The notes under the pieces were generated by a model that was not told the DNA's origin, did no database searches, and was given only the letters and a program-made list of their open reading frames with translations. A stretch of 63,116 bases of DNA, filler included, from Reclinomonas americana ATCC 50394 (taxonomy: Eukaryota): assembly GCA_048213135.1 (NCBI GenBank). It is 14 parts of 14 records of this genome, joined end to end, with 100 filler letters (N's around TTAATTAATTAA, not from the genome) between each part and the next. Parts side by side here need not be neighbours in the genome. Positions count along the whole stretch, not along the records: positions 1 to 12,295 come from AFZH01018298.1; 13 more parts are not named here. One strand, given 5' to 3'. Of this stretch, positions 1 through 63,033 are shown in pieces; the stretch's first letter is position 1, and each line of letters opens with the position of its first letter. A program made the position numbers and the translations under genes.

Positions 1-2375
1 CGTGCACTGCAAATGATTCGCGAGCACGAGGTCGCCATGCAGGCCAGCGGAGTGGGATTGCTCCCGATACCGCCACCGTCGCCGCAGGAGCAGGAACAGG
101 AGGAAAAGGGCGACGGCGACGCGGACAGCGGACGTGGTGTGTCGCCACCCGAGCCGGGCACGGGCGCCAGCAGCAGTTCGTCGTCGGCGGTCACCGCCAA
201 GCGGCTCATTCGCGTGCTGGTGCCGCTTCCGCCGCTGCAGGTGGGCGGAGGAGGGGCGAGTGGGAGTGGAGAGCGTGTGAGTCCGGGTCTGTCGCCGACG
301 TCGCGGGCCGCCGATGTGAAGCAGCGGTTGATGAGTTTGTGTCGGCATAATCGAGTGGCGGAGATTCGGTGAGGGGGGTGAAGGGGAAAGGGGAGAGAGG
401 GAAGGAGGGAAGGGAGAGGAGGGGAAGGGAGAAGGAAGGGGGGAGAGGGAAGAAAGAGGCAGGGAGACAGAGAGAAAGAGAGAAATTGGCGGAGAGAGAG
501 AGAGAGGAGGGAAGGGGGCAGTGAGAGATGGAGGAAGAAATTAGCAGGAGAAGAAGGCAAGGAGAAGGCGGAAGAGAGAAAGTGGCAGGGTAAAAGAGAC
601 CTCCTTCGTCTTGTCTCTCTTGTCCCCTGTCTATTCTCCCTGTCTCTTTTCGTAGGCAAAAGGCAAAAAGAAGCAGGCAGGGAGAAAGAGAGAGGGAGAA
701 TGAAGCAGTGAGAAAAATGCAAGGAGAAAGAGGCAGGGGGGAATGAAGCAGGAGAGCGAGAGAGAGAGAGAATTAGGGAGAAGAGACAAATAGAAAAGGC
801 ATCGAGAAAAAATGAAGGGAGAACGCGGCAGAGAATGGAGACATGAAGAAGGAGGCAGGGAGAAAGAGAGAGAGGGAGAATGAAGCAGTGAGAACGTGGC
901 AGGGAGAAAGAGGCAGGAGAACGAGGCAGGGAGAAAGAGGGAGAGGGGGAGAGAGAGAAAGCGAAAAATAGACCTCCTTCCTGTCTCTCTTTTCCCCTGC
1001 CTCTTTCTTCTTGTTCTTTGCTGTAGAGAAACGAAAAGGGGTAGGATGCAGGGAGAAAGAGACAGAGAGAAAGTGGTAAGGAGAAAGAGACAGAGGGAAT
1101 GAGGCTGGAAGCAAGTGTCAGGAAGAAAGGAGAGACAGAGAGATATGGACAGAATCAGGTTTAAAGGTTTTCAGAATGATGTAGGAGAGAATGGAGAGAA
1201 GGAAAGAGCGAGAGGGAGATCGACAAACTGACCCTTCTTTCATTCATATTACCAACCTTCTCACTTCTTGTCTCTGTCGCAGCTCTCTCCTCCGCCAGCA
1301 ATCGGAGGGCGACTGGCCCGCGCAGATGGCGCCACTGGTGGAGGTCCGTGACGGACATGGTAATACGCCGCTGTTGGTGGCTGCGCAGAATGGACACGTG
1401 CAGCTCATGAAGCTGCTGGTGGAGAATGGCGCGGATGCGCGTGCCAAGAATGTTGCGTGGGAGGGCCGGAAGGGGGGAAGGGAGAGAGGTGGCCTCTTGT
1501 TCGCCAAGTCTGTCGCGCACCATTCTGTGTGCTTTTTTCCGTCGGTCTCTCTGCGGCACTTACTTTTTCAGGCGCTACTTGCCTCTTGTTCTTCTCCCCT
1601 TGCCATGTTTCTGTTGTTGAATCCGTCTTCCTTCGATTCTTTCTCATCTTCATCTTTTTTCTCTCTCTGTCATCCGATCGATTTTCGATGCACCGTGGAA
1701 ACAAGGATTGGGTGCTCTCTCTCTCTCTCTTTCTCTATCTCTCGTTCTTTCTCCCTCTTCGGTGCATTTCTCTTTGTGTCTTGCACCGCTTTCTTCTCTT
1801 CTGTTGCCTTCCATCCATCGCTTGTGTTTCCGCGCTTCTTGTCTCTCTCTCTGTCTCACTCGCTCACTTTGCTTGTCTCCTTCTTTGCAAGCTTGATTTT
1901 ACTTAGAGTTCCAGCATAAAGTTTCCACACGCCACGCGCACTGAGCGCATCACATCCAGCATGTGCTTCTTCCGTCCGCGCTTCGCCTTCTCGCACTTCA
2001 GTTTTTGTTGCTTCCCTTGTCGTTCGTCTCCCTTGCATTTTCCGTCCTCCTTCTCTCTTTTCCCCTTCTCTCCCTTCCCCTCTCTTCCCTCTGCATCCCT
2101 TCCTCACACACTCTTTCCCTGCGCCACAGAATCACGACATGAGTGCGCTGTCCTTCGCCCTCAAGTTCAACAACCTGGCCTGCCGCGAGTACCTCGAACA
2201 GGTGCTGGATCAGTCGCGTGGCACCGGCGCTACTGCGACTGCCGCTGCGGCACGCAACGACGGCAAAAGAAAGTTGCCGATGACGGCCAGCGAGGGCGAG
2301 GCGGCAGATGAGGACACGGATCTGGTAATTACACCCGTGACGACGGCCACGGATCGGAGTGAGGCGGAAATGTAG
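1..2375 (+). CDS. Ankyrin-repeat protein, 3' part (5' end outside window); exons approx <1-368, 1282-1451, 2130-2375
   Basis: Spliced reading gives RDGHGNTPLLVAAQNGHVQLMKLLVENGADARAKN joined to NHDMSALSFALKFNNLACREYL, i.e. consecutive ankyrin repeats. GT-AG introns with GA/CT-rich content. TAG at 2373-2375. Confidence 0.75.
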
Positions 2376-3186
2376 GTTCCACACAAGCGGTGTTTTTTTG
2401 AGTGCTGGGGAGGGGGCATCTCTTCATTGCTGACAAATTAGCCCACTTTGGCGCTGGGAATCGCCTTTTGGGTAGTGAGGAGGTACTGCACGGAAGAGAT
2501 CGGCTCAAGATGAACTATGAATCCCGTTTGTTGATGGAGCAACGACTACTGCATTAAGAAGAGACAGATACGACGAGTAGCACGATGGATATGCTAGTGA
2601 CAGCCTGGCAGGCGGCCTGCTCTCGCAATCGCGCGCTGTCTCCCACTCTCCTTTCTCTCTCTCTCTCTGTGCCCATTTCTCGTACAGCCGACAGCCACAC
2701 ATAAATCCACAACTTCATAACAGCTCTCGCATCACCTGTTGGCTGGTTCCGCACAACAGCAATTCACGATGAACAAACAAGCAGCAAGCAAAAGCTACCA
2801 AATGCACAAGAACAGATATAGTGAGTGCTGTGCTCAACAATCTCTCTGCTGCACAAGCATACCTTGTGGATTGCCAGAGACGGTGCAGGGTAAGCAGATC
2901 GCTGCTGCTCGAGAGTGGCTGTTGAGTGCACCAGGTCGCGTTGAAGTTGAGAGACCCATTCCTCGATAGCAGCTCAATCGCGTTCCACGCATGCCACTAG
3001 TGCCACAGCCGCCGCCCTTGCTTGCTCCGCTGTTCGTGAAATGCGCTGCTCTTCGGCCAGCGCTTGCCCGGCATGCGGCCTGGCTTGTTCCGCGGCGCGC
3101 GAGTTGTGATCCAACTGTCGCCCTGGCTTGCTCCGCAGTACGTGAAATGCGCTGTTCTTCGGCCAGCGCTTGCTCGGCATGCTGCC

Positions 3187-6077
3187 TTACTCCGCGGCGC
3201 GCGAGTTGCGATCCGGCTGTGCCACTCGTTCATCAGCGCGTGCAATACGCTGCTCGTCGGCCAGCGCTTGCTCCAGCGTCCTGGCACGTTCTGATTCCGC
3301 AGCGCGCTGCTCCGTCGCTGACGCTTGTTCCTGAAGTGCCAGTCGCTCCTCCACAACAGCTCTGGCACGTTCCAGCTGCGCTACACGCTCCTCAGCAGCG
3401 CGTGAGATGCACTGCTCCTCAGCCAGTGCTTGCTCCTGCTGTGCCAGTCGCTCCTCCACCACAGCTCTGGCACGTTCCAGCTGCGCTACACGCTCCTCAG
3501 CAGCGCGTGAGATGCGCCGCTCCTCAGCCAGTGCATGCTCCGCTTGCGCAGCTCGCTCCGCCGCAAGCACTGTGTCTCGTTGCAGAAGGACCGCATTCTC
3601 CTCCAGCTGAACCACGCGCTGGCGGAGCCGCGCCACAGTGCCTTCGTACTGTCGGCGCTGGCGATTCCACTCTTGCTGCTGCAACTCCCGCTCTCGTTTC
3701 GCTGCGTCGAGCTCGCGCTGGAGTCGAGCGGTGTCGGCGGTGGCAGCAGCACCCTGCACGTATCACTTGTGAGACGAGCGATGGAGAATGAAGGTTACCA
3801 ACAGGGAGGAGTTCTCACCCGTTGTGTTGCGTCGGCTGCTGTGCGTTGGGCAAATAAGTCCGCGTTGTCAGCACGAACTCAGCACTGAAAGACAAGGCAA
3901 CGCACCTGGAGGCGAGGAAGCAGGAGGTGGTCGCAGTGGCTGTGCAGGCTGCGCGGTGAGGCGATCGAGCAACTCGGCCACTTGCTCCTTGCGGCCGTCG
4001 CGCGCCATCTTCGCCGCGGTCTTGCCCTCCTTGTTGACCATCGGAATGAGGTCGGGGTAACGAGTGGCGAGGAGTCGCACGATAGCCTCGTGGCCTCCAT
4101 AGGCCGCCAAGTGCAGCGCAGAGGCCTGGTCTTCTCTCGTGACCGCCAGCACCATCTTTGGCGGACATCGTCGCTCATCCGCCAGCAGCCACTCCACCAC
4201 TGGCAAATGCCCGTCGCGGGCCGCCGTCATCAGCGCCGTCTGGCCGTATCCATCGACCAACTGTGCGAGCTCTGAGCCCACACCACTCTCCGCCCACAAG
4301 TACTCCAGCACCGAGAGGCGGCCGAGACGTGCGGCACTGTGAAATGCCGAGTTGCCGAGCATGTCCATCTCCTCCCTCCGCAGCAACGTCCGAGCGCCCT
4401 CACGCGCCACCAGTTCGCGCAGTGCTTCGACTTCGCCACACCTCGCCATCTCGTACGCCCTCTTCCTTGGTAGTGGCGGTGGTGGAGGAGGTGGGGGAGG
4501 AGGATCACTGTGCAAGTCCACAGGCACTCAGTATACTTGAAGGACGTGAGTGAACAAGAATGGAGAGCACTACAAACCCTGCACCGCTGCTGTGCGGCAA
4601 CTCTGGCTGCCGATGGAGTTGGACGACGGAGGCATCATCCGCAGTCTGCGTGTGGAAACGAGAGGTCTGAGTTGGAGAAAGACACAGAGCAGCAACTGCG
4701 GCGATTCAGTCTCACCACCCGCAACGTGTCGGCTGCTTCAGTAATAGAGGTGATGAGAAGATGAGCACAAGGACTAAAGCATGCAACGCTGGACACACCT
4801 GGCGAAGAGAAAACAGACTGAGGTTGCTGCAGCTGCGTCTGGACAGTGTGCACATAGAAACGAGTTGGAGAGAGCCCGCAGAGCAGCTCTTGCAGCGATT
4901 TCAGGTCTCACCTCCCGCACCGTGTCGGCTGCTTCAGTCAAAGAGAGTGAGGAGAGGATCGCACAGGCCACGCTGAAAAAAGTGAAGAGCAATGCGCATC
5001 GACGCACCTGGTGAGGAAACAAGCTGGAGGGGGACGACGGAGGCATCATCCGCAGTCTGCATGTTGAAACGAGAGTTGGAGAGAGCTCACAGAGGAGCAA
5101 CCGCAGCAATTCAGGTCTCACCTCCCGTACTTCACTGGCGGCTTCAGTAATAGAGAGTGATGAGAAGATGAGCACACAGACTGAGCATGCAACGTTGAGC
5201 GCACCTGGAGGTGAGGAGACAGACTGAGGTTGCTGCTGCTGCCTCTGGACAGTCTGCACATAGAAACGAGTTGGAGAGAGCCCGCAGTGCAGCTCTTGCA
5301 GCGATTCAGGTCTCACCTCCCGTACTTCACTGGCAGCTTCAGTCAACGAGAGTGATGAGAAGATAAGCACACAGACTGAGCATGCAATGTTGAGCGCACC
5401 TGGTAAAGAGGAAACAGACTGAGATGGAGGAGGCACAACGAGATGGTCCAGCAGCTTGCCCACATGCTGCATGCCACACTCGCGAGCCCACTGCGCCGCC
5501 GTCTTGCCCTCGTCGTTGACCATCGGAACGAGGTCGGGAAAGCGCGTGGCGAGCAGTTGCACAACGGCTTCGTGGCCATTCCGCGCCGCCCAATGCAACG
5601 CCGTGCGCTGCTCAACAGTGACCGCCCGTGCTTGTTCCACCGGGCATCGTCGCTCATCGGCCAGCAGCCACTCGACCACTGGCAAATGGCCGCGCAAGGC
5701 AGCAATCATGAGCGGAGTCACGCCACTGGTGGTGACCAACTGTGAGAGTTGTGCCCCGACACCACTGCTCTCCTCCCACAGGTACTCCATTGTGGAGAGG
5801 TGGCCATTGCGAGCGGCCCACTGATATGCCGACTGGTTGTACTCGTCCATTTCTTCGCGTTGGAGCAGAGTGTGGGCGCCCTCGCGTGTGACGAGTTCGC
5901 GCAGGGCTTTTATGTCGCCATCTCTTCCCATTTCCCAGGCTTTCTTCCTGGGAGGGAGGAGGAGGAAGGAAAAGGAGAAGTGAGGCAGTGGAAAGGTGAG
6001 GGAGTGCGCAGTTGTCAAGAGTAAAAAAAAAACCTGGTGTTGGCATTGCCTGTGGCGCCACTGTGAGCGGCGCCCAT
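3187..6077 (-). CDS. Ankyrin-ankyrin-coiled-coil protein, kinase-less paralogue ('gene B'); possibly a truncated or decaying copy
   Basis: ATG at 6077 (MGAAHSGATGNANTR|KKAWEMGRDG). Ankyrin blocks approx 5400-5948 and 3906-4490. Repeated small linker exons at 4580-5337. Coiled-coil exon from about 3753 ends at TAA 3187-3189. Frameshifted coiled-coil remnant continues to about 2860 and no kinase follows. Confidence 0.75.
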
Positions 6078-6654
6078 TGTGTGTGTGAGAGAGAGACAGA
6101 GAGAGTGAGTGAGTGAGTGAGTGAGCGAGAGAGAGAGAGAGAGACGAGAGAGAGAGGGAGAGAAACCGAACAACAGGACAAACTATTCTCCGAAGAGCGA
6201 TGGGAGAGTGGGGCGTGCAAGAAAGAATTGAGACTGGAGCGGCGATAGACAACATGCAGAGGGGAAAAAATGACATGCCGTCCATTACATACAACTGCAT
6301 ATTTCTCTCAATCGACGTCGAACTCTCAAGATCTTTCCTCACATGGGGCGCCATCTCATTCTCCACTGATTTACTTTTCGTGTGTGTCGGTCCTCGCTGC
6401 ATATCATCGTGCATTGCTGCACCTTCTGCACTCGGTGCACGTGGAGAGATGATGGGCCCGCGGGCCACATGCACGTCGGACAGCTGAACGTCATCGCCAA
6501 CGTGGCGGAGCACACGATATGAGGTGGATAAGAAGCGGTACACACTGTGAGGGAGTGAGTGCCGTGTTCTGCCTCAGCTTCAACCGATCCACTGCTGTGC
6601 CTGGCTGCACACAGAAGCGGGCGAGTTGTTGCACAGTCGCAGCTCCGAGCAGCC

Positions 6655-9600
6655 TCACTGGAGCTCCAGCGTGAAATCACCCAGCTTCTCTCGCAGCTCG
6701 CACATCACGGCCTTGGCTTGCTCCGCAATCGGACGGTCAAAGAGCAGAGACATGCATCTGCAGGCACAGATAAGTGCCGCACGCAAACACACACTCCCAC
6801 CTTCCTCCAACGACAACGCAACTGCACTCCCAGCTTCAACATGCCACGCGCCACATCCTCCCGCCACTCGCCTGCCGTGCGGTCCGCCTCGGCCATCGCG
6901 TCCACCGCGTCTAGCGACCGCTCCCACACACGAGCCTGATCCACCAGCACATGCGCTTCGCGACCCGTCAGCAGCTGTAGGAGGATCAAGCCGAGAGCGT
7001 ACATGTCCATTGGGAGGCGAATTTTGCACGATTGCAAGAAGAGTGGGTCGATGTAGAACGTCGAGCCGGAGCGCGTCATGGTGTGGCGGTGTGTCTGCAG
7101 ATGGGGAAAAGGTGAGCTGAGCAACTTGCAGAGAGAAAGATCGTAGTAGCGGACCTCTCCCTCGTCAAAGACACGAGCAATGCCAAAGTCACCGACGCGC
7201 GGCTCACATCGGTTGTCGAGGAGGATGTTGGAGGGTTTAAGGTCCCGGTGCACCACGTCATTCTGTGGAGGGACAGGAGGTGTGGGAATGGGTCTTTCTC
7301 CTCTCTTCTTCTCTCATTGTCTCGGAACGAAGCCTTGCAGCACAAACATCGTGACCCTCACCTGATGCAGGAAGCACACACCCTCAGCGATGCCGAGTCC
7401 GATTTGCAATCGCTCTTTTACCGTCAGCGGCTGCATGTCGGCCGATCGGTTAAACAGCCGCTTCTCAAGATCGTGTCCACTGGGGTGTGTTCCTGGTGGT
7501 CAGCGACAAAGAGGGTAGAAAGGCCACAGCTTGTCTCGTTCTCCCGTCTGTTACGGTCACCTCAATCCTTCTCTTGCCACCGCATCTTGCACTTCCACTT
7601 GCTAACTGGTACATCTGGCACACCTGAGGCCACGCTGCCCTTCGTGTTTTCTATTTCTCTTCGTGGTCGCCGCCCTCGCCTGTCCTTACACGCAGTGTCC
7701 TCTCGTCACAATGCATCTCCAACTGGATCACCCATTGCATTCTCCAATGCCCCTTCACTTCTACCCCTCGCCTGTCCTTACACGTAATGCGCTCTCTTCA
7801 CGATGCATTCCAGTCAAACTACTACTTACTTCCTCTAGTCTCTTGCCACCGTTCGCTCCAATGACGCCCCCTCGCCTGTCCTTGCTGCTACTACCCCCTC
7901 ATCCTTCTACACTGCCGTCTGCTAGTCAAGGCGCCCACTTCTCACTCATATCATTCGAAGACAACAGGACTCGCACCGCCACCTCCCCTAACTTCCACTC
8001 ACCGCATGGCTCGATACACCAAACACCTCTCCCTCGTACCATCGTCCGCAAGCGTTGCATACCCAAGCAGAGGAACAAGTCGGCAATGATACAAACGCCC
8101 AATGGTGTTCATCTGCAACATCACTGACGAATGAGCACACAAACTCACTCAACCCCCTTTCCTCTCTGCGCACCTCCGCATCATACGACTCCATTGCCCA
8201 CGGCGCGGTGCTGTCGATCCGCTTGATGGCCACATCCTCACCGTCCAGCAAGCACAGATACACCTCGCCTTGACCGCCCTCACCGGCCTTGTAGCGCCGG
8301 TGGAAGGATTCGGTGGCGGAGACCACGTCGGCCCAGCCGTACTTGCGCAGGCGGCCGGGATGTGTCGCTGGCAGGATGGATAAGAGACGGCGGTTGATGT
8401 GAACAGCAACCTCCCTGCTGTGCATCCAAACCTTGCAGATTGCTCAACTCGCGGCGGAGACGATCGACTTGGCGAGTCAAGTCAGCGGCACGCTGCTTCT
8501 CGGTGGCAAGCGACTGCTCGAGGGCAGCACACCGCGCTTCAGCTGCTCGCTCCATGTCGCGTTGAAGTTGGGCAACTCGTTCCTGGAAAGCTGCTACTTG
8601 CTCCGTCGCCGCCGCTCTGGCGTCACGTATGTTTTGCTCAAGCTCGGCATTGGCGCGCTCCAGCTGCGCTGCACAATCCTTAGCAGCGCGTGAGATGCGC
8701 TGCTCTTCGGCCAGTGCCCGCGCCGCTTCTGCCGCGTCTCGATGAAGAAGAACTGCATTCTCCTCCAGCTGAACAACGCGGTGACGCAGCTGGGCCATGG
8801 AGCCTTCATGCTCACGGCGCTGCTGTTCGCGTTGCTGCTCAAGATCGTGAACCTGCTGCTCGCGCTCGTGTTTTGCTGCATCGAGCTCGCATTGGAGTCG
8901 GGCGACATCGGCAGCATTAGCAGCAGCAGCCTGCATTTTTGGAGAGAGATCAGAGATGGAGAATGAGAAACTCAAAGTGACGACAGTAGAAGCGATGAGT
9001 TTTCACCTGGTCTGCTGCAGGTTTGGAGTACAGTGCGTGTTTCGCCGACGTGTCAGCGAACAAGATGCAAGGCTTCAACACGAGGTGACGCACAGAATTG
9101 ATACTCACCTTGAGGGGTAGAAGAAAGAATAGGCGGTTGTGGCTGCGGCTGTGGTGGTGGTAGTGCTTGTTGCTCCGCAGAGAGGCGATCGAGCAACTTG
9201 GCCGCATGCAGCTTGCCACAGTGAAGTGCCCACTGAGCCGCCGTCTTGCCATTCTCGTTGACCATGGGAACGAGAGCGGGAAAGCGAGTGGCGAGGAGCT
9301 GCACAATGGCTTCGTGGCCGTTTATGGCAGCCCAATGTAGTGCAGTGGACCGTGGATCACTGGATCGAACGTTGGAGACCGCCCGCACCATCTCCGGCGG
9401 ACATCGTCGTTCGTCGGCAAGCAACCACTCCACCACTTGTAGATGCCCATTGTAGGCAGCCGTCATCAACGGCGTCCAGCCGTCGTCGGCGACATTTTGT
9501 GCGAGTTGTGGCCCGACATCGCTCTCCTCCCACAAACACTCCAACACAGGGAGATGGCCATGACGCGCGGCATAGTAAAATGCCGACCTGCCACCAGAAC

Positions 9601-9754
9601 TCATCTCCTCCCTGCTCAGTAAATTCTGCGCGCCCTCACTCGCCACCAACTCGCGAAGTGCCGTCACATCGCCATCCCTTGCCATTTCCCATGCATTCTT
9701 CTTCTGAGGTGGAGGTGGTGGTGGTGGTGGTGGTGGTGGTGGGTGGGGGAGGAG

Positions 9755-9785
<31 letters not shown>

Positions 9786-10961
9786 AGGAGAAAGTGCACT
9801 GCACACCCAAGATTCAGTGAACGGCAAGTTATATAAGAATGCACAATAGCAATACACACCTGGAGGCGCTGCTGCTGCCGCCAGCTTCGTTTCGCTGCTG
9901 CAACTCTGACTGTTGCTGGAATCGTTGGAGCATGCGGAAACGAAAAGTCAGAGGTGGAGAAGGAGAGACAAAGCAACACAGAGTAGCAATTCGGTCTCAC
10001 CTCCCGATTGGCGTCGACTGCGAATGTCAAAGTACAGCGGAGAGGTGATATGCAGCGAGAACGAAGAGAGAGAGAGAGAGACAGTGAGAGTGCATGCATC
10101 TCTGTGATTGTGCTGATCTCTCTCTCTCTCTCTCTCTCTCTCGTCTTTCTGTGACCTTGCTTGCCTCTCCTCGTCTTTTCTTCCCACAATGGTGAGGCTG
10201 TCTCTTCAGAAAACTCCTCGTCCTCTCCTCTCCTTCTTCCAAAGCTCTTCCCCCTATCAATCGACGCACCTGGTGGAAGAGGTTGTGACTGCCATTCCTG
10301 CAGTTGTGGGGGTGGTGGTAGTGGTGGTGGTGCGGACTGGTCAGCGAGACGATCGAGCAACCCGGCCACTTCGTGCTTGCCGTTGTCGCGTGCCACCTGA
10401 GCCGCCGTCTTGCCCTTCGCGTCGACGTTCAGAATGAGGTCGGGGAAGCGAGTGGCGAGGAGTCGCGCAATGGCTTCGTGTCCTCCCAGAGCAGCATAAT
10501 GCAGTGCAGTATAGTCGAATTTGTTGATCGCCCGCACCATCTCCGGTGGACATCGTCGCTCATCGGCAAGCAACCACTCCACCACTCGCAGATGCCCATA
10601 GAAGGCAGCCGCCATCAATGGCGTGTAGCCATAGTCGTTGACCGTTTGTGCGAGTTGCGGCCCGACGCCACTCTCCTCCCACAAATACTCCAACACAGAG
10701 AGATGTCCCCTTTGAGCGGCATAGTAAAATGCCGAGCGGCCATACGATCCCATCTCTTCTCTCTGCAGGAGAGTCTGAGAGCCCTCACTCACCACCAACT
10801 CGCACAGTGCCTTCACATCGCCCGCCTCTGCCATCTTCCATGCTTTTTTCCTTTATAAGCACGGCACACACATTCAATTAATACGTAACAAAGTGAGCCA
10901 CAGCAGGGGAAAAAGCAAACCTCCTTCCACTTCCAGTGGCTCCATTCTGTGCGGCACCCAT
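6655..10961 (-). CDS. Ankyrin x2 blocks - coiled coil - IRAK/Pelle/RLK-type Ser/Thr kinase ('gene A'), N-terminal Met-Gly
   Basis: ATG at 10961 (MGAAQNGATGSGRR|KKAWKMAEAG). ANK blocks approx 10270-10851 and 9109-9705. Coiled-coil exon 8432-8930. Kinase exons 8174-8367 (GEGGQGEVY, VAIKR), 8003-8112 (HCRLVPLLGY..CLVY), 7362-7479 (PLTVKERLQIGLGIAEGVCFLH), 7155-7262 (HRDLKPSNILLD..DFG), 6823-7094 (GSTFYIDP, DMYALGLILLQLLTG) and 6655-6757 (CMSLLFDRP) are phase-consistent. There is an apparent 1-nt frame discrepancy in the poly-Pro tract near 9740. Confidence 0.85.
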
Positions 10962-11329
10962 AGGTCGTGTGTGTACGTGTGGAGAAAGACAAAAATCTCA
11001 AAACCCGGACACAGTCAAATCACGCGATCGCGACACCCAAATCACGGCCAAACCAAGTCCTGTCAACAAGAGGACGACCCGTCACCGCAGCCCAAAGAGA
11101 TAGGGCGTGAAAGGGTGAGCATGCAGCAGCGAAGAAGGTGACGTGACACCACCCAACCCTCCTACAAAATTCGGATTTTCCGCCGACGTCGACGTCACTT
11201 CTTTCTTCACACCCTCTCCATCACCCGTTCACTTCTGGCCAATAAGAAGTCGTCTTCACTCTCCCCGTTACACCAATGCGTTAGCATTGACATGCAATTA
11301 CTTTATCAAAGATATTCCGATCCGAGTTG

Positions 11330-11760
11330 TTCTGCGATCCCTCACGCGCCACCGACTCATGCAGTGTCTTCATATCACCCTCCTTCGCCATCGCCCATGC
11401 CTTCTTCCTCGTCGGTTGTGGAGGGGGAGGAGGAAGAGGAGGAGGAGGAGGAGCACTGCGCACAACCACAATTCTGCAGTCAATACCGCGTAATGGAAGA
11501 GCGCATAGTAGCAAATACAAACCCTGCGGAATCATTTCGCTGCTGTCTCTCTCGTTGTCGCTGCAGTCGGTCGACGGCAGCTCCATCGACAGACTGCACG
11601 CGGAAACGAGAGACGACAGAGCAGCACAGAGAATCTCACCCCTCGAACTGCACCTTCGTCGGCTGCTGCTTCACACTACAGACAGCGAAGAGAAGATGAG
11701 CGACCGGCCACTACCGAGACGTGAACACTGAGGATGCATCGTCGACACACCTGAAGCCGA
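11330..11760 (-). pseudogene. Remnant of linker exons plus a truncated ankyrin block from the same family
   Basis: PPPPPQPTRKKAWAMAKEGDMKTLHESVAREGSQN matches the start of the ANK blocks of genes A and B but breaks off near 11330. Upstream sequence resembles the mini-exon/linker introns. No start exon and no downstream domains. Confidence 0.6.
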
Positions 11761-11798
11761 AGATACAAAACTTGGATGGCGGTCAACACCAAGCAGCC

Positions 11799-12240
11799 TC
11801 ACTGGAGCTCTAAAGTAAACCCACCCAACTTCTCGCGCAGCTCGCAGATCACGGCCTTGGCTTGCTCCGCAATCGGACGGTCAAAGAACAGAGACATGCA
11901 TCTGCAGGCACAGATAAGTGCCGCACGCAAACACACACTCCCACCTTCCTCCAACGACAACGCAACTGCACTCCCAGCTTCAACATGCCACGCGCCACAT
12001 CCTCCCGCCACTCGCCGGCCGTGCGGTCCGCCTCGGCCATCGCGTCCACCGCGTCTAGCGACCGCTCCCACCGACGAGCCTGGTCCACCAGCAGACGTGC
12101 TTCACGACCCGTCAGCAGCTGCAGGAGGATCAAGCCGAGAGCGTACATGTCCATTGGGAGACAGATCTTGCACGTTTGCATAAAGAGCGGGTCGACGTAG
12201 AATGGCGAGCCGGAGCGTGTCATCGTGTGGCGGTGTGTCT
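11799..12240 (-). CDS. C-lobe of a further IRAK/Pelle-type kinase paralogue ('gene C'); 5' part lies in the assembly gap
   Basis: THRHTMTRSGSPFYVDPLFMQTCKICLPMDMYALGLILLQLLTG...CMSLFFDRP...LELQ* is a close copy of 6655-7094, including the last intron. Confidence 0.85.
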
Positions 12241-12295
12241 GTATACGGGGAAAGAGTGAGCTGAGCAAGTTGCAGAGAGAACGAGGGAGACAATG

Positions 12296-12395
12296 NNNNN
12301 NNNNNNNNNNNNNNNNNNNNNNNNNNNNNNNNNNNNNNNTTAATTAATTAANNNNNNNNNNNNNNNNNNNNNNNNNNNNNNNNNNNNNNNNNNNN
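12296..12395. other. Assembly gap with six-frame-stop linker; the same 100-nt pad recurs at 15084, 19898, 22694, 25810, 30492, 32187, 35000, 40244, 44705, 47723, 49369 and 55399
   Basis: Identical 44N-TTAATTAATTAA-44N pads, many next to microsatellites. Several genes continue colinearly across them. Confidence 0.97.
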
Positions 12396-12614: not shown

Positions 12615-17178
<4,564 letters not shown>

Positions 17179-19610: not shown

Positions 19611-19997
19611 AGGATGCATCGATAAGCAGAAGGGGTTGCTCTCTCTCTCACACGCGCATGCTTCAGCTCGCAGCTTTCCTTGTCTCTCTCTTTCGCTCTC
19701 CCTCCTGCTCTCACTCCCACACACACACACGCACTCTCTCTCTCTCACACATACAGACACACACACAAAGAGAGAGAGACACACACACACAAACACACAC
19801 TCTCTCTGTCACCCGCTCTCTCTCTCGTCTCTCTCCCCTCCTCCTCCTCCCTCCCTCTCTCTCTCTCTCTAGCTCTGGCTTTCCCTCTCTCACACACNNN
19901 NNNNNNNNNNNNNNNNNNNNNNNNNNNNNNNNNNNNNNNNNTTAATTAATTAANNNNNNNNNNNNNNNNNNNNNNNNNNNNNNNNNNNNNNNNNNNN

Positions 19998-21916: not shown

Positions 21917-24482
21917 TCACGACAGAAGTGGCTTCCACCACAACGCTCTATTCAACAAGTCGACCTTGTTCCCGACACCACCGCAATGTACCTGCACATG
22001 CATACGGTCGCCTATGAGAAAGAGAAGAAGCTACGAGCACCCCTCATATCCCACAGCGCGCACTCACCACCATCAAGTCAGTCTCCTCCGGTATGTCGCT
22101 CATCTGCTTCCGCGCGACCAGCAACTCAATGCCACTCACGGTGTTGACCTGCTGCAGATTGAACCAGTCGATGCGCAGCCGGCCGAGGCGCACATGCACG
22201 TCCACCAGCGCATTCATGAACTGCTGATCGTGGTCGTCGAGATGTGGCCAGTGCTTGTTCAGTTGCCCGACGGCAGCCGCAAACAGTCGCAGAGAGTACA
22301 CAGTTGGGCGTGCTGTCCACACTCCCGCGTTGATACTCAGCGCACGCTGGTGAGAGGCGCACACGTGAGCCGGTGTGCCGTTCTGCAATCATGTGAACAA
22401 TGAATGAGGGACATTGCGAAGCACGCAACACCCACTCCAACATCTCACCGGGCCAAAGTCCGACAGGCTGTTGGAGATCGTGTACGACCACGGATCGCGG
22501 GTTCGCTCTGTCGGTGTCGCCTCCAGCATCAACGTTGCGTCCTGCTCGGAAATACCAACGAGGTCGCCCTGGAAGATGATGTCGGGTAGGATATCGTACA
22601 TCTGCGAAACGGATGACACTTGCGGCAGATCCCACACTGGCCGAACAAACACGGCATCCACGTCCGTGTGGAACGGTTGCACGCCGCATCGCANNNNNNN
22701 NNNNNNNNNNNNNNNNNNNNNNNNNNNNNNNNNNNNNTTAATTAATTAANNNNNNNNNNNNNNNNNNNNNNNNNNNNNNNNNNNNNNNNNNNNAGACGGT
22801 CGCCGTGAGCAGCAAAGAAGCGAGACAACCACATCTGGATCAGTTCCAGGTACCGTCCAGGATTCTTCGATGCCAGCTGCACCACCGTGAACACCACCAG
22901 CCGATGCAGCGAGTTGGCACTCGGCTGCACCGTCATGCGTGGATGCGCCAACACCGCCGCCACCTTGTCCAGCATCGCTCGACTCTCGTGCACTGCTGTT
23001 GGATCTAGAAACAACGACCGCGGGGTTGGGGCATGGTGATCCCCACTGACTGCCGCCGCCGCCTCGGCGAGCGCCGTCTTGTCTGTGAGCACGCGCCACA
23101 TCTCCGTCTCCATGTCGCGACAGAGGTCGGCCGGAAAGAACTCGACGCGCGGATACACCGCCGTCCGCTTGTGGGCGCGCAGCGCAGCCGACAAGGTGTG
23201 CACCGGGGGTTCGGAGCGATCCGGCAGTGGCGGTGGCATCATGGTGAGGCTGCGCTGAGCAAACTGCGGTCCGAGATGCTCGCACTCTCGCTCCTGCACT
23301 GTAAGATCGGCACCTCCTGTGTCACACCGTGATAGTGAGTCTTCGAGCACGAAAGGGTGGATGGTGCCTTGTAGGTTCGCCTCACAAACCGTACACAGAA
23401 AGGCAGAAATGATTATCACGCATCAACTGCGATGGTGACGACGACAAGGGCAGCAAATTAATTGCAAGATCTAGAAGCGGTGTGGCGTATCTCCATTCGG
23501 CGAGGAACGATCGATGTCGACCAGCGGCGAGTTTGTCCGCGACAGGAGGCAGGATTAGCGGTTTTTGCAACTGCAAGAAACTGCACCAGTGAGAACCAGT
23601 TGAGGTGTGTTGGGTGACATACAGGTATCGTCACGCAACTGTCCAGTCGCCCGAAAGCTCACAAAACCATACGCGCCGACTCGAGATCATCTCGTCGTTC
23701 TATTAGCAACACGCACGGAGTTCAGTTCGCGATGGTGACGGTGCGACAGACGGAAAGCATGCGCATATGCGATTGTGGAGCCATCAGTTGTTCAAAGAAG
23801 CACACAAACTCAGAGGATGATAAATGCAGTGATGTGCATCGTACCTCCACAAACGCGCTCCAGCTGTGTCGCAGCACCTCATACGCCAGGTCATTGTCCT
23901 CACCAACCGTGGCCAAGACTGCGAAAGCGCGAGAGTGTCAGGATGACTTGATTTCCTCACCAAACGCCACTTGCGCACCTGCGCCCCACAAAGTTGGCGC
24001 CGAGTACGTGTCCACATTCACTGATACAGCATGTGGCGCGTCCTCGAACTTCACAGACACCGTCCACTTTCGAGACGGGTACATGACAAAGCGTGGCAAG
24101 TCCATCTTGCAGATGCGACTGGCTCTGTCATCATCGGTACTTGCCAGTGTGAGAGCGCAGCATCCGACACGCTTGAGTTGCATTGTCTGGCAAGGAAAAC
24201 ACACAGATTATGAATGCACCGCAGCTGCAGGCAAGAGGCGGAAGAAGAAGCAAACCTGCAATGTCGAGAGTACACTCAAGGCGACTCGTTCAACAAGTTC
24301 CTCTTCAGTACATGTTATCGGGGAAGAGAGTGCATGCTTTGCCAAGGCCTCCCGCACTGTGTACGAGGGAGGGTGGGCACACAGCACATTCATCAACAAG
24401 CACAGTAACATACTAGAATGGGAGAAACCGACGACGAACATTCCAAAGCGCAAGGTGGCAGCAAGATTGACAGTGTTCTCAC

Positions 24483-25971: not shown

Positions 25972-27864
25972 CTCTCTCCCTTCGCTCCTCACCAATGCTC
26001 ATCGTCCAGTACCACTCCGGCGTCGCGGTCTGGTCCTAACATTGCCTTCACGGCCGTCGCCGTCGTCTCATCGCCACAAGCAATCAGCGGAAGCAGACGG
26101 TCGCCGTGAGCAGCAAAGAAGCGAGACAACCACATCTGGATCAGCGCCAAGTACTGCTCGGTATTCTTCGATGCCAGCTGCACCACCGTGAAAACCACCA
26201 ATCGATGCGGTGAGTTGGCACTCGGCTGCACCGTCATGCGAGGATGCGCCAACACCGCCGCCACCTTGTCCAACATGGATCGACTCTCGGGCACCTCCGT
26301 TGGATCTAGAAACAATGACTGCGGGGTTGGGGAATGGTGGTCTCCACCGACTGCTGCCGCTGCCTCGGCGAGTGCCGTCTTGTCTGTGAGCACGCGCCAC
26401 ATCTCCGTCTCCATGTCGCGACAAAGGTCGGCCGGGAAGAACTCGATGCGCGGATACACTGCCGTCCGCTTGTGTGCGCGCAGCGAAGGTAACAAGGTGT
26501 GCACCGGGGGTTCGGAGCGATCCGGCAGCGGCGGTGGTACCATGGTGAGGCTGCGCTGGGCGAACTGCGGTCCGAGATGTTCACATTCTCGCGATATCGA
26601 TCGCTCCTCCACAGTAAGATCCGCACCTCCTGTGTCACACCACGATAGTGAGTTTTGGGGTGGCATGGAAGGGTAAAAGGATCCTTGTTTTCTTGTCTCA
26701 CAAACCGTACAAGGAGAGGCAGAGGTGACCATCACGCATCAACTGCAGCTGCGACGATGATAGGGAGAGCTGTGATGGCTTCGCGTATCTCCACTCGGCG
26801 AGGAATGGTCGATGTTGAGCAGCGGCGGTGAGTTTGTCCGCGGCAGGAGCCAGGGCCAGTGGTTTTTGCGACTGCAAAACATTGCACCAATGAGAGCAAG
26901 TTGAGGGAAGGAGAAAAGGGGGGGTGAAGGGGAAGGGAAATGGAGAAGGTGACGGGGGAAGGTGACGGGGGAAGGTGACGGGGGAAAGAGAAGGGTGAGG
27001 CGATGAGGGACATGATCGTAACGCAACAGCCCAGTCAGTCACAAACTCGCAAAACCATTTGCGCCGATCGGGGATCTTCTCGTCGTTCTATCCGTAACAC
27101 ACAAGGAGTTCAGTTCGCGATGGTGACGGTGAGATAGAAGGAAAGGAGGTGATCGGGAGGCACTGGGCCACCAGTCATTGAATCGGCACACAAACACAGA
27201 GGAGAAAGGCAGTGTTGTAGCTTGCTGCATTCTTCTTACCTCCACAAACGCGCTCCAGCTGTGTCGCAGCACCTCGTACGCCAGATCATTGTCCTCACCA
27301 ACCGCAGCCAAGACTGCGAAAGCGCGAGAGTGTCAGGATGACTTGATTTCCTCACCAAACACCACTTGCGCACCTGCGCCCCACAACGTGGGTGCCGAGT
27401 AGGTGTCCACATTCACTGATACAGCATGCGGCGCGTCCTCGAACTTCACAAACACAGTCCACTTTCGCGAAGGGTACACGACAAAGCGTGGCAAGTCCAT
27501 CTTGCAGATGTGACTGGCTCTGTCATCGTCATCAGCTGTCAGTGTAAGAGCGCAGCATCCGACACGCTTGAGTTGCATTGTCTGGCAAGGAGATTATGAA
27601 TGCACCGCAGCTGCAGGCAAGAGGGGGAGGAAGAAGCAAACCTGCAATGTCGAGAGTACGCTCGAGGCGACTCGTTCAACAAGTTCATCTTCAGTACATG
27701 TTATCGGGGAAGAGAGCGCATGCTTTGTCAAGGCTTCCCGCACTGTGTACGAGGGAGGGGTGGGCACACAGCACATTCATCAACAAGTACAGTAACATAC
27801 TAGAATGGGAGAAACCGATGAACAAAACGCAGGGACACCATTATTGCCAGTGTTATCACTCTCT

Positions 27865-57290: not shown

Positions 57291-58583
57291 ATGCGCCGCG
57301 TGAGAGCACCCCACGTGCGCCCCGACTGGCCGCACCGCGTCGAGCAACTCGGCTTCACCTACCACACCGACCCCGACGGCCACCCGTACTGGTGCGAGTC
57401 GCACATGTATGAGCTGTCGGAGCGACTGGTCGACGAGGTGCAAGAGTGCACGCGTGAGGTGCACGGACTGTGCATGCGCGCGGTGGAGCATGTTGTGCGC
57501 GACGATGAGCTGCTGCGGCAGTTTCAGGTGGCCGAGTGGGTGTGGCCACTGGTGCGGCGCTCGTGGCGCGAGGAGGCCGAGCATGCGGTGTATGGGCGCT
57601 TTGACATTGCGGTCAGTAGGGAGGAGGATGGTGTGCCGCCCAAGGTGCTGGAGTACAATGCCGACACGCCGACCACTCTGCTGGAGTGCTCGCTCGTGCA
57701 ACGACAGTGGCTGGAGGAGGTGATGCCGCCCGGGACGCAGCAGTGCAATCGCGTGCACGACTCGCTGGTGGCGGCGTGGAGACACCAGCTGTCTCTCCTC
57801 GACGGTTCGCAGCAGGTGCTGCACCTGGCCCACGAGGCCGGCCACCGCGAAGACACGGCCACGGTGCAGTACATGGCGCGTGCGGCGCGTGAGGGCGGCT
57901 GGCCGCACACGAAGGTGTTGTCGATGCAGGACTTGGGTTACTGCTCGGAGCGGCGGTGCTTTGTGGATCTGGAGGACGAGCCGGTGCGTGCGCTCTTCAA
58001 GTTGTACCCGTGGGAGTGGCTGCTGGCGGAGCCGTTTGCCAAGCTGCTGGTGGTGGACGGCGATCGCACGTGCATTCCGCTGATGGTGGAGCCGCCGTGG
58101 AAGATGTTGTTGTCGAACAAGGCGATTCTGGCGGTGCTGTGGGATCTCTTTCCCGATCACCGCAACCTGCTGCCGGCGGTGGTGGAGACGCCGGGGGAGA
58201 CGCACGAGAGCATTGTGCGGCGACTTGGTGGTGGTGGTGGAGGAGGGTACGTGCGGAAGCCGCTGCTGGGGCGGCAGGGCGAGAGTGTGCGGGTGGTGGA
58301 TGCGGAGGGGAGGGTGTGCACGGAGGTCAAGGGCACGTATGGGGAGGAGGGTTTCGTGTGTCAGGCGTTTCATCCGATTGCGGTGTTTGAGGGGGGGAGG
58401 CATGCGGTGGTGGGGTCGTGGGTGGTGGGGGGTGGGGGAGGTGGTAGGGGAGGGGTGGAGGCGGTGGGGTTGTCGGTGAGGGAGGATGCGACGTGTGTGA
58501 CGACGGATGGGAGTTTTTTTGTGCCGCAGGTGGTGGTGGGGGGGAGGGGGGAGGAAGAGGAGGAGAGGGAGAGGGAGGAGTGA
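57291..58583 (+). CDS. Glutathionylspermidine-synthase-family ATP-grasp ligase, YgiC/YjfC-like; intronless
   Basis: RPDW..LGFTYHT..PYWCE, YGRFD, KVLEYNADTPTTLLE, LFKLYPWEWL, EPPWKMLLSNKAILAVLWDLFPDHRNLLPA, YVRKPLLGRQG, GSWVV..VRED..T..SFFVP. Single 430-aa ORF. Confidence 0.9.
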   Translation: MRRVRAPHVRPDWPHRVEQLGFTYHTDPDGHPYWCESHMYELSERLVDEVQECTREVHGLCMRAVEHVVRDDELLRQFQVAEWVWPLVRRSWREEAEHAVYGRFDIAVSREEDGVPPKVLEYNADTPTTLLECSLVQRQWLEEVMPPGTQQCNRVHDSLVAAWRHQLSLLDGSQQVLHLAHEAGHREDTATVQYMARAAREGGWPHTKVLSMQDLGYCSERRCFVDLEDEPVRALFKLYPWEWLLAEPFAKLLVVDGDRTCIPLMVEPPWKMLLSNKAILAVLWDLFPDHRNLLPAVVETPGETHESIVRRLGGGGGGGYVRKPLLGRQGESVRVVDAEGRVCTEVKGTYGEEGFVCQAFHPIAVFEGGRHAVVGSWVVGGGGGGRGGVEAVGLSVREDATCVTTDGSFFVPQVVVGGRGEEEEEREREE

Positions 58584-61600: not shown

Positions 61601-63033
61601 ACAGGTGATAATCACCTTCACATCGCGACACACATCCAGCTGATTCTTGACAAACAGATTCACACCACGATACAATTCATCGTACCCGTCAAGCAACAAC
61701 AGCAGCGGTTCCTCCTTCAACCGTCGCACATCCGACTCGCTGAATCCCAACTCGGGTGACAATCGCTCCAGTGCCTCCTCCAACAGCCGCTCATCGGCAT
61801 TGTGCAGTGCACCGAGAGGCACACGCACAGGCACTCGTCTGCTCTCCCTCGACTGCCACTGCCGCCAAGCTCGCTCAGCGAGCACCGACATGGTGGTGGT
61901 CTTGCCGGCTCCACTGTTGCCAAACAGTACCAGCACACGCTGGGAGGTGTTGGCGTTGGAGAGGAAAGCATCCACCTCCGTCAACAGATCTGTCATCCTG
62001 TCTCTCGATGAGACGTCACGCTCACGAGAGCATAGCAGTGGCACATACATCTGCATGTCCTTGTGCACACTCTCGTCGTGCTGGTAATAGTCTAGCTCTC
62101 TGTGGCAAAACTCCTGGACACCTACAACAAGTGTGATGAAGGTGGTCAGACACAACACGCAAGTCCTATGTAAGGCCAAACAAGAAAAAACATGGAGCTG
62201 CTCACCTGGGTGCAGACTCAGACGGAACTCATCGAGTTCCTTTTCTGCGAGACGGTGCCTGTGTACGGCCGCTTGATCTCGGGACCGCTGACGAATGTTT
62301 TGCAGCTTGAACTCGACTTGCTCATGCCAGATAGGCAGTGGTAAGTGTCCGTCCTCGTTGGTGACATCCACGAGCGCCCGCACATACGGAGTTTCATTCG
62401 CTGGAAATCGAGTGCATACAAACTCAGCAAGCAACAGAAGGAATACTGCACTCACGCGACTCACCACCCTCGTGTGCTTCCAGTTCGTGATAACTGGCAA
62501 AGCCAACAAAAACGTTTTCTACTAGAACTCTCTCGTCAACTGGACGCACAGTCTGCGGACGTGACCTACATCCGTATATATCATGGATATGTGAGTGGCA
62601 GCAACACGTGATGCAATGCGTCAACCCACTCGCATACCTATCGACGGTACGGCAGCAGTTCATCAACAAAATAACCACCGCGCGTCTCGAGGTCATCAGA
62701 CGCAGACGCTGCATGCAGTATTCCACCAGTTTCAGTGACTTGTCTCCGCTCGCCTGCACGCTCGTTATCAGCACATCTTCTCAACGACGAACTCAAGGAG
62801 CGACACACTCACCAAACGTGACCTGGAGATCTGGTTGACATCGAATGGGAGGAGCAACAAGTCTCGGTCGATCGCCAGCCCGTGACCGGAGAAGAAAAAC
62901 AACACACATTCACACTCCTCATCGACCTCCCCATCCGCGAACTTGTTAAACACGGAGTGCATGTCATCGCCCATCACATTGGGAGACCGGGAGACATGAA
63001 AACCGATATCCTCAAGCACCGGCTGCAACAAAG
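58622..63033 (-). CDS. NLR-like STAND protein: caspase-family (C14) protease - NACHT - pentapeptide repeats - about 14 WD40; 5' end outside window
   Basis: Exons 62813-63033, 62638-62753, 62465-62565, 62206-62400 and 58622-62121 join in phase. FFFSGHG and ILLMNCCR; Walker A GNSGAGKTT, Walker B LLLLDGYDEL, IITCR, NPFLL; pentapeptide run at about 60475-60630; WD40 array at about 58700-60440. Confidence 0.9.

Follow-up and report, generated by a model that had tools for sequence, protein, structure and literature searches.

The question raised by this locus is what kind of protein is encoded by a minus-strand cluster of ankyrin-repeat and protein kinase sequences in the jakobid Reclinomonas americana, and with which kinases its catalytic domain belongs. 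The window, that is, the whole analysed stretch of 63,116 bases, is a chain of 14 contigs with lengths of 1.5-12 kb, and the kinase cluster lies on the first contig (1-12295). The DNA of the stretch is eukaryotic, with about 55-59% G+C, (CT)n and (GA)n tracts and short GT-AG introns. The minus-strand head-to-tail paralogues that an earlier note had described on the first contig, genes C, A and B with an ankyrin scrap between C and A, were all present. The cluster is quite likely to represent a lineage-specific tandem family of cytoplasmic, probably membrane-tethered serine/threonine kinases of the RLK/Pelle (IRAK) type (RLK, receptor-like kinase), and the full-length order, as displayed by gene A, is probably Met-Gly, two five-repeat ankyrin modules, a heptad-bearing helix of about 165 residues, an ATxxF extension and an RD kinase. 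The domains, their order, a splice-compatible frame and the intact catalytic motifs are established from the sequence. The parts of gene A are as follows.

10921-10961, minus strand: exon 1, 41 nt, MGAAQNGATGSGR, with Gly2; donor AG/gt in phase 2, in frame with the ANK1 exon
10270-10850, minus strand: ANK1 exon, five ankyrin repeats and then a Pro-rich tail; acceptor ag/G, donor CAG/gtgcgt; Pfam Ank_2 3.6e-23
9109-9703, minus strand: ANK2 exon, five ankyrin repeats, 5' border uncertain; donor AAG/gtgagt; Pfam Ank_2 4.2e-25
9007-9014, minus strand: predicted 8-nt mini-exon with AG/GT consensus flanks, introns of 94 and 76 nt, frame restored
8432-8930, minus strand: helix (putative coiled-coil) exon, 166 residues; acceptor cag/G at 8930
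8367-8174, 8112-8003, 7479-7362, 7262-7155, 7094-6823 and 6757-6655, minus strand: six kinase exons, ending in TGA

The kinase domain and its nearest relatives

In gene A, AG acceptors and GT donors flank all seven exons from the helix through the kinase, and these exons join into one open frame, which closes with the TGA at 6657-6655, about 30 residues past subdomain XI. The spliced catalytic core is complete, with GEGGQG, VAIK, the DAE glutamate, HRDLKPSN, DFG, YIDP, DMYALG and DRP, and the motifs quoted in the earlier note (LRKYGWADVVSATESF, HRDLKPSNILLD, GSTFYIDP and DRP) were read directly from the sequence. Judged by these motifs, gene A encodes a complete RD kinase that looks active. 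The Pfam Pkinase family matched the C-lobe open reading frame (ORF) at 6.5e-17, with 62.2 bits against a cut-off of 31.7.

For the class of the kinase, the full set of PDB chains was searched with three non-overlapping pieces (N-lobe, middle exon and C-lobe). All 15 matches of the N-lobe ORF at E<=0.1 were plant RLKs or receptor-like cytoplasmic kinases (RLCKs), and the plant matches of this piece include BRI1, LysM kinases, CERK1, lectin kinase, BAK1, Pto and FERONIA; at E<=10 it matched 26 sequences, with plant RLKs/RLCKs at ranks 1-19 and IRAK1 at rank 20, below which were three entries of the bacterial kinase StkP, one plant RLK, one non-kinase and one CDK. The middle exon (61 residues) matched 12 sequences at E<=10, the first eight being PBL2, IRAK1, three ScRIPK entries, BIK1 and two SymRK entries, followed by PTK6. 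The C-lobe ORF matched 805 sequences, the top seven of which were BRI1, SOBIR1 and BAK1, with IRAK1, IRAK4, RIPK3, SymRK and a LysM kinase coming next. Ahead of the glycine loop, gene A carries the stretch YGWADVVSATESFH, in which A-T-E-S-F stands six residues ahead of GEGGQG in a manner that fits a helix followed by TxxF, and this same stretch is the portion that aligns to BRI1, CERK1, BAK1 and FERONIA. Passages of PMC10916322 treat this extension, made of an amphipathic helix and the ST motif TxxF (consensus FSYEELEKAT[D/N]NF[S/D]), as a hallmark of RLK/Pelle kinases that IRAK1, IRAK3 and IRAK4 possess and that Raf and Roco kinases lack. The assignment of the kinase to the RLK/Pelle/IRAK type, made in the earlier note, thus stands by similarity, with all three pieces matching plant RLK/RLCK and IRAK chains first and the TxxF extension present, and membership in RLK/Pelle is supported by this similarity plus one hallmark motif.

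Searches of protein collections pointed to the same plant kinases. When 5.8 billion proteins were searched with a word index, the top eukaryotic matches to the greater part of the query were kinases from plants and Closterium that carry a U-box and/or a Usp domain (34-37% identity). Exhaustive comparison with 1.84 billion representatives yielded 28,327 matches at E<=0.001, 415 at 1e-10 and one at 1e-30; a Tagetes protein carrying 15 repeated kinase pieces ranks first, and among ten of the names eight are plant or Closterium, one entry is without a name and one is P0170 (see below). A language-model atlas returned plant RLK fragments with a score of 0.96. The spliced 301-residue kinase scored 110-138 bits, with up to 37% identity, against plant and Closterium Usp/U-box kinases, the best full-domain scores (126-138 bits) belonging to Usp/U-box kinases of Cryptomeria, Crotalaria, Lupinus and Amborella and to a Closterium kinase.

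The only close relative found is P0170, a 98-residue ORF from a Reclinomonas americana expressed sequence tag (EST) in EukProt, which is also the sole entry retrieved by a short C-terminal query. Over its whole length it can be aligned with the C-terminal ends of the spliced products of gene A (70.4%) and gene C (69.4%), across the last junction and down to the same final residue; a member of the family is therefore transcribed, spliced as predicted at the last junction, and without a U-box.

Paralogous copies on the first contig

Within the 63 kb, the pieces of gene A match the first contig only (tblastn), and the spliced kinase, searched separately at E<=1, likewise had no match on the other 13 contigs. 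The contig holds four ankyrin blocks (10852-10301, 9724-9152, about 5955-5419 and 4467-3943) with mutual identities of 60-67%, two helix regions (9002-8283 and 3807-3286) that are 53% identical, a single complete kinase (8443-6708) and a second kinase C-lobe (12280-11852), all by tblastn. The features outside gene A are the following.

11799-12295, minus strand: gene C, 3' end of the kinase only; penultimate exon 12238-11967, last exon 11901-11799 with the stop, and part of the preceding intron
11329-11409, minus strand: ankyrin scrap, 81 nt, the first 27 residues of an ANK2-type block, with the rest of the block absent
6034-6077, minus strand: gene B exon 1, 44 nt, MGAAHSGATGNANT, with Gly2 and Ser6; 86 nt upstream of the ANK1 acceptor
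5400-5947, minus strand: gene B ANK1 exon; Pfam Ank_2 2.9e-21
4669-5423, minus strand: 195-nt tandem repeat, 3.8 copies, in gene B between its ANK1 and ANK2 blocks, 65 codons per unit with the frame open; intron or linker
3906-4465, minus strand: gene B ANK2 exon, candidate 5' border; donor CAG/gtgcgt; Pfam Ank_2 1.6e-18
3819-3838, minus strand: predicted 20-nt mini-exon of gene B with consensus flanks, introns of 67 and 65 nt, frame restored
3187-3753, minus strand: gene B helix region, open until the TAA at 3189-3187; 105-nt repeats; 57% identity to the gene A helix
2862-3186, minus strand: decayed tail of gene B, out-of-frame helix-like units with an in-frame TGA at 2976-2974 and no kinase after it

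The exon borders of gene C were placed by homology and have AG/GT flanks. Its product is 91.6% identical to that of gene A over 143 aa (91.9% for the DNA over 496 nt), the similarity stops 10 nt beyond the stop codon, the ratio of nonsynonymous to synonymous substitution rates (dN/dS) in the common exon is 0.20, and the fragment scores 21.5 bits against Pfam Pkinase, below the cut-off of 31.7. The "gap" that the earlier note placed at 12296 proved to be an artificial spacer between contigs and no sequencing gap, and gene C is therefore truncated by the contig end. In total, 13 such spacers of the form N44-TTAATTAATTAA-N44 join the contigs (for example 12296-12395, 15084-15183, 19898-19997 and 55399-55498), and their 12 bases TTAATTAATTAA, with stops in six frames, sit between the paired runs of 44 N. 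Features are not readable across these joins. The last introns of gene A (6758-6822) and gene C (11902-11966) are identical at 65 of 65 bases, with the adjoining exon differing at 19% of its synonymous sites; the identical intron therefore suggests a gene-conversion tract, or else a constrained intron.

The ankyrin scrap shows 56-63% identity over 27 aa (tblastn) and 78% identity to the start of the gene A ANK2 (blastn), with the upstream 100 nt alike as well. Splicing of the scrap onto the gene A ANK1 was considered and rejected, as it is out of frame.

Gene B runs collinear with gene A from ANK1 via ANK2 to the helix (67% identity over 1.1 kb), and its dN/dS relative to gene A is 0.28-0.37. 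Of the earlier description of gene B as two ankyrin blocks and a coiled coil, the ANK-ANK-helix part holds, with the reservation that the 3' end of the helix is decayed, as a 4-nt indel in one repeat unit leads to the TAA at 3189-3187 and the TGA lies further on, and that there is no kinase. A kinase relic 3' of gene B (1-3200) was not found, the best tblastn E-value being 0.47 and the blastn matches being of chance size only. Gene B is a truncated, decaying copy in which the ankyrin and helix frames are still open, and it would be a leftover of duplication and loss that has kept the anchor, the ankyrin modules and the helix while its kinase was lost. Downstream of gene B, on the opposite strand, an ORF at 1185-1919 (plus strand) with an ankyrin repeat (Pfam Ank 8.8e-08) was also observed, and its sequence is unrelated to the family.

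The birth-and-death pattern proposed in the earlier note agrees with the adjacent position of one intact copy, one truncated copy and the scrap, together with dN/dS values of 0.20-0.54 between paralogous blocks, which show purifying selection between the copies. The ANK1 of gene A (10331-10849) is nearer to its own ANK2 (9164-9703; 67% identity, synonymous divergence dS 0.42) than to the ANK1 of gene B (60%, dS 0.91), which hints at homogenisation inside the gene or at separate internal duplications. The copies are real paralogues and no collapsed alleles, as the earlier note had considered they might be, because they share one contig, their flanks differ and they diverge by 8% to more than 30%. 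A wider artefact, in the form of mis-joined alleles or a contaminant contig, is exceedingly improbable, since the fragmentary assembly, the position of gene C at a contig end and the identical 65-nt intron, which would fit it, stand against four elements with different flanks on one contig, an A/C difference at 8% of 496 nt with a likeness that ends 10 nt past the stop, an A/B identity of only 57-70%, and an independent Reclinomonas americana EST product that belongs to the same family.

Exon structure of gene A

Gene A is predicted to form one spliced frame that runs from an MGAA exon through ANK1, ANK2 and the helix to the kinase. Exon 1 sits 68 nt upstream of the ANK1 acceptor, and the word ATGGGNGCNGCN was found at only two sites in the 63 kb, which are the first exons of genes A and B. 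The glycine at position 2 reported in the earlier note was recovered in both genes, each of which has a short MGAA first exon with an in-frame splice to ANK1; both first exons end with AG/gt in phase 2, and the acceptor ag/G is at the equivalent codon position.

The ANK2 donors are in phase 1 (AAG/gtgagt at 9109 in A, CAG/gtgcgt at 3906 in B) and the conserved helix-exon acceptors cag/G at 8930 (A) and 3753 (B) are in phase 0. A direct splice from ANK2 to the helix via the strong donor is out of frame, and the mini-exon model was adopted instead. The mini-exons at the equivalent joint in A (8 nt) and B (20 nt) each restore the frame exactly; the introns beside them (65-94 nt) agree in size with four of the six introns of the helix-kinase part of gene A (60-99 nt). 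One transcript is favoured because the mini-exon solution works independently in two paralogues and because gene B has GTG where gene A has ATG, so that translation of a separate protein cannot begin at the helix exon of B. From ANK1 to the end of ANK2, the frame is open for exactly 599 codons in both genes (9053-10852 and 4774-6573), and the stretch between the ankyrin modules is either a linker or an intron.

Ankyrin modules, helix and N-terminus

An AlphaFold2 model of the ankyrin block, built from an alignment of the four block copies, reached a pLDDT (predicted local distance difference test) value of 91.8 and a predicted template modelling (pTM) score of 0.89, with five helix pairs corresponding to five repeats per block. 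The helix exon of gene A was modelled as one helix over residues 2-165 of 166 (pLDDT 96.4). In a windowed heptad test of its a/d positions (28 residues, register shifts allowed), the mean was 0.42 against 0.23 +/- 0.03, a value that none of 1000 shuffles reached. A single stable alpha-helix was considered less likely, as opposite charges at i/i+4 numbered 11 against 9.5 +/- 2.6 and are thus not enriched. Because windowed heptads are enriched and opposite-charge pairs are not, the modelled helix is read as a coiled coil with stutters rather than a single stable helix. In Pfam, the matches of the gene A helix ORF, to two coiled-coil families, all stayed below threshold, and no family was found for the N-lobe ORF, the middle exon or the gene B helix ORF.

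The predicted first exons give the starts MGAAQNG in gene A and MGAAHSG in gene B, both of which match the N-myristoylation pattern, consisting of Met-Gly, a small or uncharged residue at position 3, and Ser, Thr, Ala, Gly, Cys or Asn at position 6. By this pattern, the products of genes A and B are probably lipid-anchored.

Comparison with known architectures

Ankyrin repeats were found in none of the 154 nearest kinases (150 representatives and four cluster members; four-block profile, E<=0.01); a Pfam scan of 70 of the 150 nearest (those of <=1000 residues, in rank order) had no ankyrin family among the 25 most frequent families, and no ankyrin family was present among the listed ones of the 74 word-indexed kinase matches. 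In the opposite direction, an ankyrin block used as query on the 5.8-billion set retrieved 74 generic ankyrin proteins, two of which carry a kinase, both of them fish ANKK1/RIPK4-like. The statement of the earlier note that the architecture is not recognised from characterised proteins is therefore in line with its absence from the 154 nearest kinases and from the 74 word-indexed matches as listed. A search of the open literature with Reclinomonas, jakobid or Naegleria and kinase or ankyrin terms, made in an open library only, found no paper on such kinases.

The best full-domain similarity to the gene A kinase is shown by the plant and charophyte RLCK-IXb/PUB-VI group (e.g., Arabidopsis PUB33 and PUB35), which shares with gene A a long helix directly before the kinase, the RLK/Pelle N-terminal extension and an RD kinase. 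With a helix plus kinase query (phmmer), the alignments to 13 named RLCK-IXb-type proteins reached 50 to about 150 residues upstream, mostly about 80-90, and adding the helix raised the score in 12 of the 13 by about 9-25 bits, to which the composition bias of the helix may contribute. The portions of 10.64898/2026.02.10.704836 that deal with this group describe PUB-VI/RLCK-IXb as UspA, a long alpha-helical domain, a kinase and a U-box, with the PUB33 helices predicted to form a homodimeric coiled coil, and also name plant KEG. Gene A differs from this group in that UspA is absent, Pfam giving ankyrin families alone in the upstream part, and two ankyrin modules with a Gly2 start take that position, that there is no U-box (by Pfam, and with a stop about 30 residues after the kinase, as in P0170), and that its host is not a plant.

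The animal IRAK/Pelle kinases resemble gene A in the helix and TxxF that both have, with IRAK1 and IRAK4 among the best solved-structure matches (for the three pieces or the C-lobe), and in being, as predicted for gene A, cytoplasmic and recruited by way of an N-terminal protein-interaction domain. Unlike them, gene A lacks a death domain and is not known to have a Toll/IL-1 receptor context, and plant RLKs outscore IRAKs in its matches. BIK1, PBL and Pto kinases are cytoplasmic RLK/Pelle kinases with a Gly2 lipid anchor to the membrane, and they are like gene A in the Gly2 start and the RLK/Pelle kinase, with PBL2, BIK1 and Pto among the PDB matches; they consist of little beyond the kinase domain, whereas gene A has about 550 residues of ankyrin repeats and helix ahead of it.

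Ankyrin repeats are combined with a kinase of the tyrosine kinase-like (TKL) group in RIPK4/ANKK1, ILK, TNNI3K and plant KEG, and domain shuffling onto TKL kinases is common. In ILK and TNNI3K the repeats are N-terminal to the kinase, as in gene A, and the same order is given in the part of the Phytophthora infestans kinome paper that reports the oomycete TKL kinase PITG_06288, with 15 N-terminal ankyrin repeats, alongside five IRAK-class kinases. All these ankyrin-repeat kinases are of another kinase class than gene A. In RIPK4/ANKK1 the kinase is N-terminal and the ankyrin repeats are C-terminal, so that the order in gene A is reversed. To our knowledge, no other ankyrin-TKL kinase has Gly2, a double ankyrin module and a coiled coil.

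Evidence on the other side and rival explanations

Several results weigh against this reading of gene A. For the exon model, the single transcript remains a prediction; the strong ANK2 donor reaches the helix exon only through the predicted 8-nt mini-exon; an in-frame ATG stands just ahead of the helix exon, so that a separate helix-kinase protein is conceivable; and the listed exons total 2629 nt, one above a multiple of three, so that a further piece with a length of 2 mod 3 is needed at the ANK1-to-ANK2 joint, where 68 candidate mini-exons were found, none of them decisive, including a 17-nt one at 10017-10001. With such an added piece, gene A would encode about 880 residues. For the kinase class, the C-lobe ranking mixes MAP kinases and a bacterial kinase among the RLK and IRAK entries, and in a kinase tree gene A fell inside the plant set on a branch of 2.02, beside another long branch and with no supported sister, the tree being one without IRAK, Pelle, Raf, MLK and LRRK sequences. 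This tree, made with a quick method on 329 columns, had 56 rows, namely gene A, 50 plant or Closterium kinases (25 without names), four bacterial kinases and one viral kinase; five rows with matches of <150 residues were left out (P0043, P0133, P0141, P0004 and P0150), the ANKK1/RIPK4 rows being among those dropped. For the helix, a global periodicity of 3.5 residues is not significant, as 1742 of 5000 shuffles reach the observed value in a Fourier test, and for the N-terminus the probable lipid anchor is read from a PROSITE-type pattern and not from a predictor.

It is unlikely that the locus instead holds two neighbouring genes or transcripts, one for MG-ANK-ANK and one for helix-kinase, the latter starting in gene A at the ATG at 8936. 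That ATG is in frame two codons ahead of the helix exon, the ANK2 ORF reaches a stop at 9055-9053, the phase 1 of the strong ANK2 donor has no direct fit to the phase 0 of the helix acceptor, and gene B demonstrates that ANK-ANK-helix is possible as a unit with no kinase attached. However, only about 120 nt separate the ANK2 stop from the ATG, gene B has kept the acceptor and the open helix frame in spite of the GTG at the homologous site, the consensus-flanked mini-exons restore the frame exactly in both paralogues with intron sizes in range, and ANK2 and the helix are collinear between A and B over 1.1 kb.

The immune receptor-kinase system of the earlier note, in which the ankyrin repeats would sense a microbial or viral cue and the array would undergo birth and death under pathogen pressure, is rather improbable. 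RLK/Pelle and IRAK kinases serve innate immunity in plants and animals according to the passages of the literature that treat them, the plant RLCK-IXb kinases, the nearest relatives, are described as targets of pathogen effectors in part of 10.64898/2026.02.10.704836, and the intact copy, truncated copy and scrap do lie in tandem. Against this, none of the results bears on immunity or a receptor role, the dN/dS of 0.20-0.54 is purifying and not diversifying, and one cluster only was found in the 63 kb. Many RLK/Pelle kinases work in development or hormone signalling, and the P. infestans paper, in the section concerned, has IRAK-class kinases in an organism with no known innate immune response. 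An immune role has no more support than any other signalling role, and to propose that the ankyrin repeats take the place of the death domain as sensor is no more than an analogy.

We rate as low the chance that gene A encodes a divergent generic TKL kinase of the Raf/ILK/MLK or RIPK kind, which are often fused to ankyrin repeats, with a superficial likeness to RLK/Pelle. Such a kinase could account for the long branch with no supported sister, for an identity of at most 37% to any relative, for the mixed C-lobe matches, and for Pkinase outscoring PK_Tyr_Ser-Thr in Pfam. However, no Raf, MLK, ILK, LRRK or TGF-beta-receptor chain was found in the best 60 C-lobe, 26 N-lobe and 12 middle-exon matches, two fish ANKK1/RIPK4-type kinases scored only 18.2 and 29.8 bits against the gene A kinase, compared with 110-138 bits for the plant RLCK-IXb kinases, and the ATxxF extension is present, which Raf and Roco kinases lack in the account of PMC10916322 cited above. 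Constraining gene A to group with 15 Usp/U-box-type (RLCK-IXb) rows changed the log-likelihood (lnL) by +1.97 relative to the free search, with a p-value of 0.562 in the approximately unbiased test (p-AU), and since the grouping was picked after the ranking and the tree had been seen, this value says only that the grouping is not rejected by the data.

Proposed mode of action and significance

Under the reading of gene A as an anchored RLK/Pelle-type kinase, the lipid anchor would place the protein at the membrane, the ankyrin modules would bind partner proteins, and the helix would pair two chains, whose kinase domains would phosphorylate each other's Ser/Thr-rich activation loop and then relay the signal, much as plant RLCKs do. 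This mode of action is the most likely one by analogy, drawn from the parts of the protein and from plant RLCKs and IRAKs. A doubtful extension combines several of these observations: the helix-kinase core would be truly homologous with RLCK-IXb and would long predate plants, the jakobid would have an anchored version with ankyrin input, and the kinase-less paralogue would pair via its helix as a decoy or dominant-negative, giving a two-component cytoplasmic sensing module. If true, such a module would exist in a eukaryotic lineage that is among the deepest-branching.

In plants and animals, innate immune and developmental signalling begins mainly with RLK/Pelle/IRAK kinases, whose history in other groups is patchy. 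A kinome-tree preprint, in the part dealing with this class, reconstructs an IRAK4-like kinase for the last eukaryotic common ancestor, and the section of a 2024 review on their distribution gives RLK/Pelle kinases in plants, animals and one glaucophyte, patchily in green algae, and none in red algae. A member in a jakobid that is catalytically complete by its motifs would be a data point from a deep branch, with a new input region and an RLCK-IXb-like helix-kinase core. The find does not by itself open a long-standing question. The plant RLCK-IXb group is poorly understood, and gene A offers a simple protein for studying kinase switching without a receptor ectodomain or a death domain.

Other ORFs in the window

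Outside the cluster, a scan of the whole stretch against Rfam gave no match, and several protein-coding ORFs were observed on other contigs. Two paralogous ORFs at 22742-23422 (minus strand) and 25989-26738 (minus strand), located on different contigs, have no Pfam family. An uninterrupted ORF of 1298 codons at 58622-62518 (minus strand), on a different contig from the cluster, has a NACHT NTPase domain (4.6e-09), pentapeptide repeats and at least 10 WD40 repeats, and by these domains appears to be a STAND-type NTPase; STAND-type NTPases of such a kind are linked to self/non-self recognition in other lineages. The ORFs at 57270-58583 (plus strand; glutathionylspermidine synthase, 1.1e-117), 54529-55326 (minus strand; glycoside hydrolase 79 N-terminal domain, 2.6e-52) and 45239-46234 (plus strand; DEAD_2 helicase domain, 2.2e-44), all identified with Pfam, look like ordinary housekeeping genes of the same assembly.

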